A stretch of 64,000 bases of DNA from the NCBI RefSeq assembly GCF_016903815.1, contig NZ_CP069973.1; one strand, given 5' to 3'. Each line of letters starts with the position of its first letter. The stretch's first letter is position 1. Shown one piece after another: positions 39,770-57,600 of this stretch. Origin of the DNA: Escherichia coli. GTDB lineage: Bacteria > Pseudomonadota > Gammaproteobacteria > Enterobacterales > Enterobacteriaceae. The notes beneath the pieces were generated by a model, which did not search any database, had not been told where the DNA came from, and saw only the letters and a program-made list of their open reading frames with translations. Both the position numbers and the translations under genes were made by a program.

Positions 39770-40555
39770 TTACCGTTTACTCGTCAATAACAACGCGGCA
39801 ATAAACGTACAGACACCAATTAGTCCTGCCCAGAGCGGCGATATTCTGGTAATCGCAAAGCTATTATCGATGTACAAACATAAAGCCTGATAACCCATAT
39901 TGGCAATAGTCATCGCCACTGCAAACTTTAATGCATAATTAAGGCGCGTCGTGTAGTAAAAAAATGCAGTAAAGACGATGAATGCAACTGCCCAGGCAAA
40001 AAGACCTAATATCGTGGTACTGCCGGGAGGATCATTCTCCTGCTGTTGTCCGGGATGCGGATAATATGTCAGTGGCGGCGTCGGTTGTTTTAATATCTGT
40101 GCTTGTAAAACAGCCAATGCATTATTGATTCCCTGATACCAGAGGTCCGCATGTAAATAAGCCTGAGTGTGATTTTCTACCAGAAGGCCGAGATGTTTAT
40201 CGTCCAGACCGCTTTCAACCTGGCCGTTGGTTATCATAATTAACCGTGGCTCGCGGGTGGTAAAAAGTAACAGGACGCTGCCTTTTACATCACTCAATGA
40301 AGATGACGCATGCGCCAGCATCGCTTTGCCATTTTGCCTGAAGCTTGCTTCATTAACGCCAGGTACAACCACGATAAACGGCGCAATCCCGGTTTGTTGG
40401 CGAAAAAGCTCGGCTTTATGCGCGATCTCTTCAGCATCCGGTACAGTACCTGTAACATCTGTAAAAAGAGTCTTCATTATTGGAATCAATGGATTACTGG
40501 TTGCCGTCAGAGGCAGGAGTATCAGTAAACTGAGCAATAATATGATTTTTTTCAT
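39770..40555 (-). CDS. ycfZ: Inner-membrane protein YcfZ
   Basis: 261-aa ORF with signal/TM segments. Confidence 0.8.
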
Positions 40556-41013
40556 GGGCGGGACTTCCGTTTCCTGCGTGTCTTTTTAGAGGAGGGCATA
40601 CTGATTAATAAACCGACGGAGATAAAAATAACGCCCATAATGCCGATAAACCCCCATTTAAAAAAATTAACCCACGGGTTATTTATCTCAGCCTTTTCAG
40701 GATGTCCTGGAGAATAATAAACATTAACTTTATCGCCTTCGCTGTCTTCATAAAAATCGCTGCCGATACTCGAATTGAAAATTAGCGTGTAATCAGGCGT
40801 CGGTCGAAAGGCAACGACGGGATACCACGAACCATTTTTACCCGTGCGATGAGAATGACTGGAGTGCCAGACGGTATCAACAATGACGCCTTCAGTATGA
40901 ATCGCGTCTTTGCTATAGGTGAACTGGTTATAAAAGACAACAACAGAAATGAGGATCAGTACCAGACCGATACCGAGGAATATACGAAAGAAAACTCTAC
41001 TGTCCTGACTCAT
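40552..41013 (-). CDS. ymfA: Inner-membrane protein YmfA
   Basis: Start at internal Met (MSQDSRVFF); 153 aa. Confidence 0.8.
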
Positions 41014-44492: not shown

Positions 44493-46949
44493 TTAAAAAT
44501 CAGCCTGACTCGGGATCAGTTTTTGCCAGATAACTGAAACGTATTTTGCCTGGTAACGGGCGTCATCAAGTGCATTATGGCGCTCACCTTCGAATGGAAT
44601 AGCCGTTCTGGCATCGAAGTCTATGGCTTTCCCCAGCTCAACGATTGTGCGTACATCGCGATCGTTGTAGTAACGCCACGGGCAGGGGATCCCCTGCCGT
44701 TCGTATGAACGGCGCAAAATCGTGTTGTCGAAGTTGGCTCCATTTCCCCAGACCTGAACAAAAAATTCGCCGGAGTTTTCGTCGATAAATTCCCGCAATT
44801 GTAACAGTGCATCATCTAACGGGATTTCATCGGTCATAATGGCAGATTGCGCTTCGCGTGATTGCTTAAGCCACCATTTAATGGTGTCCCGATCAATGAC
44901 TCCGCCAGCAGTTTCCAGATCGATAGTCTTACTAAATTCCGGTCCCATATCTCCGGTTTGCGGATCGAAAAATATTGCACCTATTGAGATAATCGGGGCA
45001 TCTGGATTTTTTCCCATGGTTTCAAGGTCGATCATTAGATGGTCACACGTCCCGCTGGTGGATGTGCCTTTATGATGACCGTTCACCTTAACTGAGTGAT
45101 CTGTCGCCTCGCCAGTTTCACTATCGCTATCGTGATGCTGATTGCCGCCAGGGTTCTCCTTGTGTGGATGTTCAGTGCCTTCCATTTCCTCCGGATCATT
45201 TTCCTGAACTTCAACCTGATTCTCTTCATTGAATGTTTCCTGGTATGTTGCGTCGCCCATCACCGCGCCACAATCAGGGCAGTTGCCGCCGCCGGTCTGA
45301 CCGCAGGCGGTGCAGATCTTTTCCGGTTCCTGTTGCACTACTGGTTCAGGTTGTTTCGTTTCTGGCTCGTTTTGTAACGCATTTGGGCTGTTTTGTTCCG
45401 CTTTCTGGCCGTTCTGTTCCGTTTCTTGCTGGTTCTGGTTCACAGAATCGCGGGTTTCCATCCCCTTGACCCATTTCGGATCATTCGGGTCGCTAATCCC
45501 TGCAACAAATTCTCCGCGAGAGGCCGCAAGCAACTTATCGGCGTCAGGCTGGCTGATATTGGCTGCCTGCATAATTTTGTTTACTTCGTCAGCGGTAACT
45601 TTTACCTGATTAACCGGATCTATCTGTGCCTGAGTATCCAGCGATTGCGTGTCCTGGCGATGTTCAGTTGTATTCGGCTCCATTGCTTCAGTCGTTGCCT
45701 GTTCATCTGCCATTGCGTCAGACGGTTGTGATTTTTCCTCATTATTTTTTTCTTCTTCTGTTTCGCGTTCAGCAGCCAGTTCGCGGTTAACTTCTTCCAG
45801 GATATCTTTTTCCGGTGTATGTCGTGCAGCAGCGAGAGTTTCCTCGGTAGGGTTCTCGTGATCAGTTTCCGTCAAATAGGCGTTGATATACCCCTGAAGG
45901 CGTCCCGGGTAGTGATAAAATTCAGGGTGTGCGCTTCGGATAAGTGCAAAAATAGCGGCGCGGGAATAATCCAGGATACCCGGGATTGCGCGAAGTGCTG
46001 CGGACCATTCTTTGAACGGACTTTCTTTCTTCCGGACGACTTCTTTTGCGCGACGATAAACGCTGCCCGGAATTTCATAAATATTAAAATCCATCGGAAG
46101 TGTGGCCGCTGCAATCTCCACATCCAGCGTATCGAAGGTGTGTACTAAATTCGGATTGCGATCGGTTTTGTTCCCTCCACCGGCATTAGCACCGGAAGCC
46201 GTGCGGGTGATGCGTGAAACACGATTTCCTTTCATCCACTCTTTTGTCAGCAGACCGCGATCGGTGTAGTCAGCGCCCAGGTATGCTTCGAAAAAAGCAG
46301 TCATCAGTCCCAGGTCTGAATTACCAGGATTAGGGAAAACTTTGTCCGTGTCACGAACCAGTTTGTGGAGATCGCGAATTTCCAGCGGTTCGAGTTGCGC
46401 TGCTTTATTTGAGATGGCCAGCGCGGTAACGGCGGGAAGTTTTTCATCCTGTGCGTTATGTAATGTGCGCAGTTCGTCCCGCGAAACGTGTGTGATCGGT
46501 TTTTCGCTGCCGTGCTGTGCCAGCCATCGAACAGGCAGAATCTGACCTGAAACCGGCAGGAGCATGTTCTCCTCAATCTCAGCCATGTCTTCGCCGTTGA
46601 CGTTGGTATTGTCAGTGCTGGCTGGTTTATCCTGAACAGAGGGCGAGGGCGCGATAAGTACCATTGTGATACCATCTTCACCGCCCTTTTCGTATCGGTT
46701 GCAGAATTCGGTATCAAACACGCCTTCCGGAGGAAGGTCATTCACAACGGGTAAATGGACGCGAACAGGTTTTTTAAAATCCTCTTTGTCAAATCCGGCA
46801 TCGTCCATTGCGACAACACCGCGTGATATTGCAACCGATAATTTTTTTGCTGTGCGCCAGTAAAAACCGCCTTTAATTCCAAGACGTTTTCTGATTTTGT
46901 CATTTTTGGCTTCGTAATATAGTGCAATTTCTTCTTTATCAGTGCTCAT
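44493..46949 (-). CDS. Phage exonuclease with C-terminal DEDDh (DnaQ-like) 3'-5' exonuclease domain
   Basis: 818 aa; C-terminal motifs IDLETMG and HNALDDARY; long acidic low-complexity middle region; C-x2-C...C-x2-C zinc ribbon. Confidence 0.75.
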   Translation of the reverse strand: MSTDKEEIALYYEAKNDKIRKRLGIKGGFYWRTAKKLSVAISRGVVAMDDAGFDKEDFKKPVRVHLPVVNDLPPEGVFDTEFCNRYEKGGEDGITMVLIAPSPSVQDKPASTDNTNVNGEDMAEIEENMLLPVSGQILPVRWLAQHGSEKPITHVSRDELRTLHNAQDEKLPAVTALAISNKAAQLEPLEIRDLHKLVRDTDKVFPNPGNSDLGLMTAFFEAYLGADYTDRGLLTKEWMKGNRVSRITRTASGANAGGGNKTDRNPNLVHTFDTLDVEIAAATLPMDFNIYEIPGSVYRRAKEVVRKKESPFKEWSAALRAIPGILDYSRAAIFALIRSAHPEFYHYPGRLQGYINAYLTETDHENPTEETLAAARHTPEKDILEEVNRELAAERETEEEKNNEEKSQPSDAMADEQATTEAMEPNTTEHRQDTQSLDTQAQIDPVNQVKVTADEVNKIMQAANISQPDADKLLAASRGEFVAGISDPNDPKWVKGMETRDSVNQNQQETEQNGQKAEQNSPNALQNEPETKQPEPVVQQEPEKICTACGQTGGGNCPDCGAVMGDATYQETFNEENQVEVQENDPEEMEGTEHPHKENPGGNQHHDSDSETGEATDHSVKVNGHHKGTSTSGTCDHLMIDLETMGKNPDAPIISIGAIFFDPQTGDMGPEFSKTIDLETAGGVIDRDTIKWWLKQSREAQSAIMTDEIPLDDALLQLREFIDENSGEFFVQVWGNGANFDNTILRRSYERQGIPCPWRYYNDRDVRTIVELGKAIDFDARTAIPFEGERHNALDDARYQAKYVSVIWQKLIPSQADF

Positions 46950-47026
46950 TGATAAACCTCATTACAGATTTAAGGGTGAACAAATCCCTGCCATTGCTGG
47001 CATATAAAAATGAAACCGGATATTAA

Positions 47027-47236
47027 TTACGGTGCTGTTTTAAGCCCCGCCGGGATTTCGTTATTGTCCATGTGAATAACTTTATCGACCGGATAACAGT
47101 TGCCGGGAATTTTCTGTTCCGCTGCGGCAGCCATGCATTCTTTCATTGAGTTGTACATGCCGGTGATTGCATCAAGCGACTCACCAGTATTGAGATGTAC
47201 AGTCAGAATGAGTACGAATAATGTGTTCATCGCCAC
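47027..47236 (-). CDS. Small membrane protein, YdfD-like by position (putative host-killing/lysis protein)
   Basis: 69-aa ORF with N-terminal hydrophobic segment, immediately downstream of the DicB-like gene as ydfD is in Qin; identity not verified. Confidence 0.45.
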   Translation of the reverse strand: MAMNTLFVLILTVHLNTGESLDAITGMYNSMKECMAAAAEQKIPGNCYPVDKVIHMDNNEIPAGLKTAP

Positions 47237-47415
47237 TCTCCGAAAATACCGAGTTTAAGAAGGGCAATTCTGGAGAGTATGGAATTGTCATTCAGCAGGT
47301 AGGGTTCATATTTTCTCATATTGATTGCATCCTCGGTGAAATCCCTGTTACTGAGCAGAACACCAATATTAAAGCACCCGTCAGACGTATTAACGTTTGG
47401 TAGTGACGTTTCCAT
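47227..47415 (-). CDS. dicB: DicB-like cell-division inhibitor
   Basis: 62 aa; LPNVNTSDGCFNIGVLLSN..FTEDAIN.RK closely matches recalled E. coli DicB. Confidence 0.75.
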   Translation of the reverse strand: METSLPNVNTSDGCFNIGVLLSNRDFTEDAINMRKYEPYLLNDNSILSRIALLKLGIFGEWR

Positions 47416-47425
47416 TATCGCGTCC

Positions 47426-47983
47426 TCAACAATGAATTTTTAGCAATTGCTCCACAGTCATATTTTTAATTGCGCTCCGGTTTACAAGAGTCCATCCTTG
47501 TTTCTCCAGATAAAACCGGAAGGTATCCAGGGTGCAGACCATTGCGCCGTCAGGAACGGTTTCAGTGAATTTGATATTGCCGTGTTCGTCGAGACGGATA
47601 ACCAGGGTGCGTCCGTCCCCGTGAATCATTTTGTCGGGAGACGGGGCGTTATTCTGGCGCAGTTCTTCCTCCATGCGATCGAACTCAGCGATGTAGGCTT
47701 CTTTGAAAGTTGCGGCTTTTTTACCTGTGAACCCCATCACCAGGAAAACGAAGCCGTTTTTGGTGATTTGGTACATGGGGCGTTTTTCGCCTTTGGCGTC
47801 GGTGTAGGTAACGGGCGTAAAATTGCGCTCGTTAAAATCTTCAGAGCATTCTAGCGTTTCAATTTTGCGCAGAACGTCCTTGTGCATTTTGCGGAAGAAC
47901 TCTGCAACCGCAACAGACGTAGTGACAGCGCGACCATTTTCGATGGTTACGTCAGGGTGAGAAAGGGTAGGGATAGTAGCCAT
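47426..47983 (-). CDS. rha: Rha-family phage regulatory protein
   Basis: Start at internal ATG with RBS gagg (MATIPTLSHPDVTIENGRAVTTSVAVAEFFRKMHKDVLRKIE); the ORF-track 5' extension crosses a terminator-like hairpin. Confidence 0.7.
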   Translation of the reverse strand: MATIPTLSHPDVTIENGRAVTTSVAVAEFFRKMHKDVLRKIETLECSEDFNERNFTPVTYTDAKGEKRPMYQITKNGFVFLVMGFTGKKAATFKEAYIAEFDRMEEELRQNNAPSPDKMIHGDGRTLVIRLDEHGNIKFTETVPDGAMVCTLDTFRFYLEKQGWTLVNRSAIKNMTVEQLLKIHC

Positions 47984-48463
47984 AATGGCAGCCTCTTGGT
48001 TGAGTATTAATAACTCACCACCAAGGTTTTCCACGACCATAAGGGTGGTGAGGCGTACAGGGGTGGAAATACCGGTCAACCAAGAATCCGGCCAGCCTTG
48101 CAGCTGCCCTGCACGCCCCACCATAATCTGAATGTGGCTGTGCTTGACGCATAAAAAAACCGCCTGAGCGCGGTTATGCGCTTGATTGAATTCCGGGTTT
48201 CCACGCCCGGCACCCGTTTTATGAGGTGCAGGTGCACTATAATTCCACCCGTTCTGGTTTTCAATAGCTACATTCAACATTTTCTCTTACCTTTCATCAC
48301 CGAAGTGAACTTTGTTGATGCGGTGCCTGGTGCCTCCAGGTGACGTTAACCAGTTAACAATTAACGCCGGATACAGAGAATCCACCCATAACACTGTTTT
48401 TGGTTTTAACTGTTCCGCGTGCGCTTAGCCGCATTCACCGCATCACAAAATTCACTTTAAAAA

Positions 48464-48515
48464 GGGTGGCAGAGCAGTCACGGAGTAGAACTGATGCCAC
48501 CAAAGACTACACATG
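48464..48515 (-). ncRNA. dicF: DicF-like small RNA
   Basis: Minus-strand ggtggcatcagttctactccgtgactgctctgccaccc plus U-tail matches recalled DicF 3' two-thirds at about 34 of 38 nt; 5' end approximate. Confidence 0.6.
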
Positions 48516-49555: not shown

Positions 49556-49963
49556 TTATTTATTTGCGCTTCTTTTGCGAGCTTTGAGTAGTTCTTCAAA
49601 AAGTTTGTTGAAATTCTCAACTCGAGCACGCATCTCTGACAACAGAGCCTTTTGCTCTGACTCAGGCAGTGCGTCGAACAGTTGAAGCAACTCTTTTTGA
49701 TCTTCTGTCAGATTAACTGGCTGATTATCTGGGATCGGTTCGCCTGGTTGCTTATCTTCATCTCCAAAAAGAAGCCAAGTCGGCGAGCACTGAAGCGCCT
49801 GGCTCAGTGCGAATAATCTCTTCCCCGCTGGCTGTGTTTCATCTCTTTCCCATTGAGAAATTGTTACGTGAGCCACTTTGACCAGCTTACCTAATGCGGC
49901 CTGAGACAGTTTTAATTTTTTACGCCTGTATAAGAGGCGAGCACCGAAGGTTTCGTTTTTCAT
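49556..49963 (-). CDS. dicA: DicA-type HTH (XRE) prophage repressor
   Basis: 135 aa; LSQAALGKLVKVAHVTISQWERDETQPAGKRLFALSQALQCSPTWLLFGDEDKQP and MRARVENFNKLFEELLKARKR closely match recalled DicA. Confidence 0.85.
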   Translation of the reverse strand: MKNETFGARLLYRRKKLKLSQAALGKLVKVAHVTISQWERDETQPAGKRLFALSQALQCSPTWLLFGDEDKQPGEPIPDNQPVNLTEDQKELLQLFDALPESEQKALLSEMRARVENFNKLFEELLKARKRSANK

Positions 49964-50039: not shown

Positions 50040-50267
50040 ATGTTGAAAATTGATGCTATAGCGTTTTTTGGCAGCAAAACAAAGCTTGCCAATGCCGCAG
50101 GAGTTAGGCTGGCAAGCGTTGCTGCATGGGGGAAACTGGTTCCTGAAGGTCGCGCGATGCGTCTACAGGAGGCATCCGGCGGGGAACTTCAGTACGACCC
50201 CAAAGTTTATGACGAATATCGTAAGGCAAAGCGGGCGGGGCGGTTGAACAATGAAAATCACCCCTGA
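50040..50267 (+). CDS. dicC: Cro-like regulator (DicC/YdaS family)
   Basis: 75 aa; FGSKTKLANAAGVRLASV...LVPEGRAMRLQEASGGELQYDPKVYDEY matches YdaS/DicC. Confidence 0.8.
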   Translation: MLKIDAIAFFGSKTKLANAAGVRLASVAAWGKLVPEGRAMRLQEASGGELQYDPKVYDEYRKAKRAGRLNNENHP

Positions 50268-56976: not shown

Positions 56977-57132
56977 ATGAAGCAGCAAAAGGCGATGTTA
57001 ATCGCCCTGATCGTCATCTGTTTAACCGTCATAGTGACGGCACTGGTAACGAGGAAAGACCTCTGCGAGGTACGAATCCGAACCGGCCAGACGGAGGTCG
57101 CTGTCTTCACAGCTTACGAACCTGAGGAGTAA
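56977..57132 (+). CDS. hok: Hok/Gef-family type I toxin
   Basis: Hand translation MKQQKAMLIALIVICLTVIVTALVTRKDLCEVRIRTGQTEVAVFTAYEPEE (51 aa), essentially the HokD/RelF sequence as recalled. Confidence 0.85.
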   Translation: MKQQKAMLIALIVICLTVIVTALVTRKDLCEVRIRTGQTEVAVFTAYEPEE

Positions 57133-57348: not shown

Positions 57349-57600
57349 ATGATGAACATCGAAGAACTGCGTAAAATTTTTTGTGAAGATGGCCTCTATG
57401 CTGTGTGCGTTGAAAATGGAAATATTGTTAGCCATTACCGCATTGTGTGTTTGCAAAAAAATGGGGCTGCGTTAATTAATTTTGTGGATGCCCGAGTGAC
57501 GGACGGATTTATCTTGCACGACGGTGAGTTTGTCACTTCATTACAGGCATTGAAAGAGATCGGAATAAAAGCTGGCTTTTCTGCTTTTTCAGAAGAATAA
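57349..57600 (+). CDS. Hypothetical phage protein
   Basis: 83-aa ORF. Confidence 0.4.
   Translation: MMNIEELRKIFCEDGLYAVCVENGNIVSHYRIVCLQKNGAALINFVDARVTDGFILHDGEFVTSLQALKEIGIKAGFSAFSEE

Follow-up and report, generated by a model that had tools for sequence, protein, structure and literature searches.

A common allele of the prophage genes dicB and ydfD in Escherichia coli that very probably functions as in K-12

The gene pair dicB and ydfD, its operon and its phenotypes are already known and have been studied in Escherichia coli K-12 since the 1980s. K-12 DicB binds MinC, and the complex reaches the septal ring through ZipA and blocks Z-ring formation; DicB-MinC also inhibits ManYZ, and the cells become about 100-fold more resistant to lambda (PMC6832061). 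The N-terminus of K-12 DicB is essential, with L5 critical and K2 replaceable, and its last 8 residues are dispensable, though removal of 12 or more weakens activity (PMC4967827). Expression of K-12 YdfD lyses cells, and the protein, which must be intact, binds through its residues 1-28 to IspG; this reported target belongs to the MEP biosynthetic pathway, and the enzyme was assayed in purified form. YdfD is also sensitive to C-terminal changes (PMC8835842). Cells are spared from lysis when DicB or SulA is expressed together with YdfD (PMC8835842, citing Masuda 2016), and the K-12 proteins are therefore antagonistic within the one transcript, ydfABC-dicFB-ydfD, that dicB and ydfD share (PMC10448788). 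The longest K-12 transcript detected stops after ydfD, and Rem serves as the antirepressor that lifts DicA repression of dicBp (PMC10448788). Two further systems bear on the locus described below. Kil of phage lambda is reported to block FtsZ assembly in a ZipA-dependent manner (PMC3961180), and in Gifsy-1 of Salmonella, read-through of the isrK terminator yields an mRNA whose translation is switched on by the short IsrK RNA (PMC4825925).

Here we analyzed a stretch of 64,000 nucleotides of E. coli DNA (the window; contig NZ_CP069973.1 of assembly GCF_016903815.1), which carries a dicB/ydfD pair on its minus strand at 47027-47415. Many complete E. coli chromosomes match the 601 bases surrounding the pair at 100% identity, and RefSeq already holds the allele and names the genes there "dicB: cell division inhibition protein DicB" and "DUF1482 family protein". 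In strain 7/2 (NZ_CP023820.1), the same locus is a lambdoid prophage adjoining potC. The gene order on the minus strand is a DicA-like repressor, DUF1391 (ydfA-like), a hypothetical gene, DicF, the dicB leader, a cassette (discussed below), dicB, ydfD, an 818-aa exonuclease gene, xis, and int (Table 1).

Table 1. Positions of the dicB-ydfD pair and of associated features in the window
Feature	Position	Strand	Details
Intergenic region 3' of ydfD	46950..47026	-	93-97% identity to K-12; weak hairpin at 46989-47002 (weak terminator-like match)
ydfD-family (DUF1482) gene	47027..47230	-	67 aa from the likely ATG start; RefSeq DUF1482 family protein WP_001093951.1
Stop/start overlap (ATGA) of dicB and ydfD	47227..47230	-	4 nt; 10 nt if the GTG start is used
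dicB allele	47227..47415	-	62 aa, METSLPNVNTSDGCF...GIFGEWR; RefSeq dicB WP_000450218.1
dicB ribosome-binding region	47416..47445	-	GAGGA at 47423-47427, 7 nt before the ATG
Rha-family antirepressor-like gene, last in the cassette	47426..47983	-	Pfam Phage_pRha, E=4.6e-31; phrog_995, E=1.1e-86
45-aa ORF	48015-48152	-	
C4-type antisense RNA match	48041-48128	-	Rfam 78 bits; overlaps the 45-aa ORF
isrK sRNA	48153-48229	-	Rfam 69.2 bits; begins 7 nt past the promoter-like site
isrK terminator	48158-48175 plus T run	-	6-bp stem, then seven Ts
Promoter-like site	48264..48236	-	TTGAAA-17-TATAGT; best sigma-70-like match in 6 kb, 10/12 positions
dicB 5' leader	48311-48452	-	Near-identity to K-12 Qin when aligned; no differences over long stretches
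DicF sRNA	48464-48515	-	Rfam 61.1 bits (gathering score 48); near-identity to K-12 Qin
DicA-like repressor of the early-left operon	49556..49963	-	63% identity to K-12 DicA, E=6e-62
Cro/DicC-like gene	50040-50267		Divergent from the DicA-like repressor
Rem homologue	57349..57600	+	RefSeq "protein Rem"; position mapped from strain 7/2

Both proteins belong to the expected families by several measures. DicB matches Pfam PF05358 well above its cut-off (E=1.3e-32; 111.7 bits, cut-off 27; residues 1-60 of 62 aligned), passes the NCBIfam model CellDivInhibDicB (NF049927) narrowly (103.4 bits, cut-off 100), and matches phrog_1251 (E=5.6e-39). The downstream protein matches Pfam DUF1482 (PF07358) over profile positions 1-57 of 57 (E=2e-19, 69.6 bits against 25) as well as phrog_1092 (E=1e-35), and had no match among the NCBIfam models. 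Against the K-12 MG1655 reference proteins (taken from NC_000913.3), BLASTP gave 64% identity over 55 aa for DicB (E=1e-22) and 67% identity over 63 aa for YdfD (E=1e-32), so that the alignments by which an earlier sequence-only reading of this DNA had proposed to check itself came out far beyond chance. That reading had also placed the downstream ORF in the ydfD position, which agrees with the DUF1482 match, the identity to YdfD, and the same overlap with dicB as in K-12. Taken together, it is very probable that the two ORFs are dicB and ydfD of the early-left (PL-type, "dicBF") operon of the lambdoid prophage next to potC and that they work as in K-12. We base the identity of the genes on the family matches above curated cut-offs, the identity to K-12, the RefSeq annotation, the context of DicF, leader and DicA, and the conserved overlap. 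As in Qin, DicF precedes the pair in an early-left operon under DicA repression, and the function assigned to it is one predicted by homology. By homology too, the 77-nt region beyond ydfD is likely the 3' end of the dicB-ydfD transcript.

Drawing each step from the K-12 experiments, we would expect the operon to be transcribed once DicA repression is lifted (by prophage induction, Rem, or spontaneous switching). DicB together with MinC, brought via ZipA to the septal ring, would then dismantle the Z ring and cause cells to filament, and the DicB-MinC interaction would also stop DNA entry of ManYZ-using phages. YdfD, translated in coupling with dicB, would inhibit the isoprenoid enzyme IspG and lyse dividing cells, a lysis that the DicB division block would restrain. 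Filamentation, lysis, and phage exclusion, all of which the sequence-only reading had named, are indeed reported for the K-12 genes (PMC6832061, PMC8835842, PMC4967827). Its term "host-killing module" is loose, as the K-12 proteins are antagonistic rather than cooperative (PMC8835842).

The pair is conserved as a unit. The 4-nt overlap between the dicB stop and the start of a YdfD-family gene recurs in 79 of 80 IMG/VR loci encoding DicB relatives (ATGA in 58, GTGA in 21, and the non-start ATAA in the remaining one), and K-12 dicB-ydfD has the identical gene order and the same overlap. A Shine-Dalgarno-like GGAG lies inside the 3' end of dicB, about 8 nt upstream of the ydfD start, and the overlap suggests that translation of the two genes is coupled. 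The overlap had also been noticed in the sequence-only reading, with a downstream ORF of 69 aa; the overlap stands, at 4 nt and not 10, while a length of 69 aa is obtained only from the GTG at 47236 (47027..47236), and the likely start is the ATG at 47230, which matches both RefSeq and the K-12 ydfD start. The reading had also left the strand, minus for both ORFs, unstated. Pairwise dN/dS against other alleles points to purifying selection on dicB (0.06-0.23) as well as on ydfD (0.11-0.32 where computable). At least 1000 public contigs encode each of the two proteins in exactly this form. The pair is real but ordinary, made up of common, annotated prophage genes.

Free phages carry the genes as well. 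A 2016 survey found no DicB gene among about 2000 phage genomes (PMC5069750); our tblastn search of 50,697 phage records returned 20 deposited records with DicB genes, all of them lambdoid, among them isolated phages such as mEp460_ev081, Tritos, and HannyBb, which carry both dicB and ydfD. Kinship to P1 Icd or other phage division inhibitors was considered as well and rejected, none of these 20 records being named P1. A PADLOC search gave no defence-system match.

The sequence-only reading had described the 62-aa DicB as close to the known protein in its N-terminal two-thirds and divergent in its C-terminal third, and the segment identities to K-12 bear this out, with 71% over residues 1-41 against 33% over residues 42-62 and 25% over the last 8. 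One might therefore ask whether the divergent third has changed the partners of DicB (e.g., with MinC binding kept and ZipA targeting or ManYZ inhibition lost or altered), which would make the protein a distinct DicB subtype. The low identity of this third would fit such a subtype, as would the weakened activity of K-12 truncations that extend past the last 8 residues (PMC4967827), and two C-terminal types plus hybrids of them coexist in E. coli, as expected if the types are not equivalent. The 44% identity to K-12 over residues 37-54 likewise counts against a protein that works just as in K-12. However, most of the divergence falls in the dispensable tail, the family HMM is matched over the whole length, purifying selection within the type is strong, and the conserved or hydrophobic positions of the last predicted helix (L40, L41, N42, I46, S48, A51, L55) are kept in both C-terminal types. 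All residues invariant across 28 DicB family members, among them M1, L5, N7, T10, and S11, are present in the window's DicB. An AlphaFold2 model of low confidence (pLDDT 63.5) places helices at 13-22, 24-36, and 46-55, with the N-terminus and tail disordered. We consider a distinct subtype quite improbable and expect DicB-like activity to be kept, because L5, the family invariants, and the hydrophobic last-helix positions are retained and the differences from K-12 lie mainly in the last 8 residues, where divergence is strongest, and at non-conserved positions of the last helix.

Among the 28 DicB-family proteins, a sample biased by having been retrieved with the window's DicB as query, the C-terminus is most often of the type found in the window (YEPYLLNDNSILSRIALL.LGIFGE), and the K-12 type is the other form among these relatives, with hybrids of both occurring. 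Judged from these sequences, the divergent C-terminus is a common allele and no new variant.

Identity of YdfD to K-12 is distributed the other way round, with 43% over residues 1-28 and 86% over residues 29-63. The invariant cysteines C32 and C45 and 14 other invariant columns are present, and the C-terminal core reads EQKI.G.C.P..K. The protein ends in KTAP, a 4-aa extension over the 63-aa forms that results from a 1-nt deletion just ahead of the K-12 stop codon (47027-47041); the resulting 67-aa form is common, being encoded by 23 of the 80 IMG/VR loci and represented in many database clusters. The divergence of residues 1-28, the reported IspG-binding part, counts against function as in K-12, as does the KTAP extension, given the reported sensitivity of K-12 YdfD to C-terminal changes.

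The downstream ORF had been called a small membrane protein on the strength of an N-terminal hydrophobic segment. The segment is there (residues about 4-13, LFVLILTVHL); the membrane label, though, appears doubtful. Masuda et al. in 2016 reportedly proposed that K-12 YdfD is associated with the cytoplasmic membrane, which counts for the idea of a genuine lysis protein of the inner membrane, held there by this segment, rather than a soluble IspG inhibitor, and the two invariant cysteines could form a disulfide in a periplasmic domain. On the Kyte-Doolittle scale, however, the maximum mean is 2.39 over 11 residues and only 1.30 over 19 (K-12 YdfD, 2.0 over 19), under the usual threshold of about 1.6 for a classical transmembrane segment of 19 residues, and a positively charged flank is absent. 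In an AlphaFold2 model of moderate confidence (pLDDT 77.8, 83-90 over residues 1-40; 15 close homologues were drawn on), a beta-hairpin (5-12 and 18-26) packs against a helix (29-39), followed by a short strand, so the hydrophobic run is predicted to lie in a beta-hairpin and not in a helix. Foldseek of this model against the PDB returned nothing with E < 1, and a PDB sequence search found no relative with a solved structure for either protein. Finally, purified K-12 YdfD bound IspG in vitro, binding was also seen in vivo, and the cysteines were dispensable for it (PMC8835842). We regard a membrane anchor for the window's YdfD as doubtful because of the low 19-residue hydropathy, the hairpin model, and the published binding of purified YdfD to IspG, and an inner-membrane lysis protein is an unlikely reading compared with a YdfD that acts on IspG.

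At the nucleotide level, DicF, the dicB leader, and the sequence that follows mid-ydfD are near-identical to Qin (about 95% for the leader and flanks). Identity falls to its lowest, 33%, at the dicB/ydfD junction (47236-47265), with 47-50% in the bins beside it (47146-47175 and 47266-47295). The stretch from mid-dicB to mid-ydfD is thus a divergent allelic block, a mosaic in an otherwise Qin-like operon. We also considered whether the DicB C-terminus and the YdfD N-terminus co-vary as a specific protein pair and rejected this, as DicB proteins of one C-terminal type occur next to YdfD N-termini of two very different types, which linkage explains more simply.

Some neighboring features deserve mention in their own right. 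The first 10 or so bases of the DicF copy differ from K-12 DicF, and its terminator stem carries a compensatory pair change (GGCGG/CCGCC in K-12, GGTGG/CCACC here). RefSeq (PGAP) annotates a pseudogene "DicB, missing C-terminus" at 48311-48394 (minus strand), which we rejected as a second DicB copy, as its translation (VLWVDSLYPALIVNW...) is without DicB similarity; the segment is the 5' leader of dicB, a stretch that in K-12 happens to lack stop codons in the dicB frame, and it gave a sub-threshold, partial Rfam STnc100 match (38 bits against 47). Downstream of ydfD, the 818-aa "exonuclease" gene (44493-46949, minus strand) encodes a protein whose first 600 residues are RecE-like (909 bits to the NCBIfam exodeoxyribonuclease VIII model, cut-off 1269, aligned to positions 1-602 of its 877), with a C-terminal Rv2179c-like 3'-5' exonuclease domain (Pfam PF16473, E=1.3e-67) replacing the rest of the RecE model. 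The type I toxin gene hokD (56977-57132, plus strand; mapped from the strain 7/2 RefSeq annotation) lies in the same prophage as rem, as in Qin, and an IS200C transposase gene (40432-40890, minus strand; mapped position) sits between ymfA and potD, just beyond the prophage attachment side.

The main departure from the K-12 layout is an insertion of about 870 bp, relative to Qin, between the dicB leader and the dicB ribosome-binding sequence (47426-48300, minus strand). It comprises the promoter-like site, isrK with its terminator, the 45-aa ORF, and a rha gene absent from K-12 Qin, and Qin homology picks up again past the cassette in the dicB ribosome-binding region (87-90% identity over 47386-47445). 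We found no flanking direct repeat (target-site duplication) at the cassette borders. At a query coverage of at least 80%, 385 of the 5426 complete genomes of E. coli, about 7%, have this arrangement, most of the others having the leader joined directly to dicB, and it recurs in 25 of the 80 IMG/VR DicB loci; the same dicB-ydfD allele also occurs without it. The rha gene probably starts at the ATG at 47983 with AAGAGG just before, its stop codon (47426-47428) lies inside the dicB Shine-Dalgarno sequence, and the two genes are 10 nt apart. A terminator scan of the region revealed no terminator-like site between them, and read-through transcripts should therefore enter dicB-ydfD.

As the cassette puts the isrK terminator between the operon promoter and dicB, it may change dicB expression, which counts against expression exactly as in K-12. 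Going further, dicB-ydfD might be expressed mainly from the isrK promoter of the cassette via terminator read-through and not from the DicA-controlled promoter, which would place the division block and the lysis under an sRNA-gated antirepressor switch. Several features are in line with this, including the sigma-70-like promoter that matches at 10 of 12 positions and ends 7 nt ahead of the isrK start, the terminator-free 10-nt gap before dicB, the read-through of part of the isrK transcripts into the antirepressor gene in Gifsy-1 (PMC4825925), and the recurrence of the arrangement in several hundred genomes. Yet the case is purely structural, isrK ends in a strong terminator, rha itself contains a weak hairpin followed by Ts (47516-47530), and the existence of the allele without the cassette means that the cassette is not needed for its maintenance. 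On balance, we hold expression mainly from the isrK promoter to be a possibility, if a somewhat unlikely one, and keep the DicA-controlled promoter as the preferred source of dicB-ydfD expression. That the self-promoted cassette gives a DicA-independent, sRNA-gated route to DicB and YdfD, even in uninduced lysogens, we put forward as a tentative and rather unlikely proposal; if true, such a route would tie division arrest, exclusion of ManYZ-using phages, and lysis to the antirepressor switch.

Within the cassette, RefSeq annotates a 284-aa "Rha family" CDS (47426-48280, minus strand) that spans the isrK and C4 matches as well as the isrK promoter and terminator. Its residues 14-109 match Pfam Phage_ASH, and the 185-aa protein from the ATG at 47983 (ribosome-binding site AAGAGG) looks more plausible, although 13 variants of 86-100% identity keep the long frame open. 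A 14-nt direct repeat occurs at 48025-48038 and 48195-48208 (GGTTTTCCACGACC / GGGTTTCCACGCCC, plus strand), with one copy in the isrK hairpin and the other about 40 nt upstream of the rha ATG, and the two copies may correspond to the target sites that are repeated in antisense systems of the C4 type. Rfam c4-a1b1 also matched weakly at 48190-48242.

Beyond confirming common genes, the locus adds some descriptive points, namely a near-invariant bicistron, a mosaic block at its junction, a weakly supported YdfD anchor, and a cassette that could rewire dicB expression in a subset of prophages. The textbook K-12 DicB has the less common C-terminal type among the retrieved relatives and the window the commonest, and these points may help to carry K-12 results over to clinical E. 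coli lineages.

Compared with Qin, the closest described system, dicB (b1575; PF05358) shares with its counterpart here the length of 62 aa, the place after DicF and the leader, the ribosome-binding sequence, and an operon under a DicA-type repressor. The window's DicB differs in its tail (LGIFGEWR here, LMPKGCAQ in Qin) and at two N-terminal positions (K2 to E, L4 to S), and Qin dicB is without the 870-bp isrK/C4/rha cassette that precedes dicB here. Qin ydfD (b1576, "lysis protein"; DUF1482 PF07358, also called YebW family) shares the overlap, both cysteines, and the hydrophobic N-terminus, but the window's protein has a less hydrophobic N-terminal domain (1-28) and the added KTAP at its C-terminus. 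At the position matching the 818-aa exonuclease gene downstream of ydfD, Qin has the pseudogene ydfE; unlike Qin, the prophage in the window keeps int, xis, and the uninterrupted exonuclease gene. If dicB is indeed read from the cassette, the arrangement would echo the c4-icd-ant operon of phage P1, in which a division inhibitor is likewise combined with an antisense RNA and an antirepressor. Kil of lambda, like DicB, is a small division inhibitor of a PL operon that acts on induction, and the likeness is one of mode of action; Kil blocks FtsZ in a ZipA-dependent manner, whereas DicB works through MinC. The isrK-orf45-anrP region of Gifsy-1 (Salmonella) resembles the cassette in layout, having in the same order isrK with promoter and terminator, a 45-aa ORF, and an antirepressor-family gene (PMC4825925). 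In contrast to Gifsy-1, a C4 antisense-RNA match overlaps the 45-aa ORF in the cassette, and past the antirepressor gene there is neither an isrJ match nor a terminator, with dicB-ydfD following directly.
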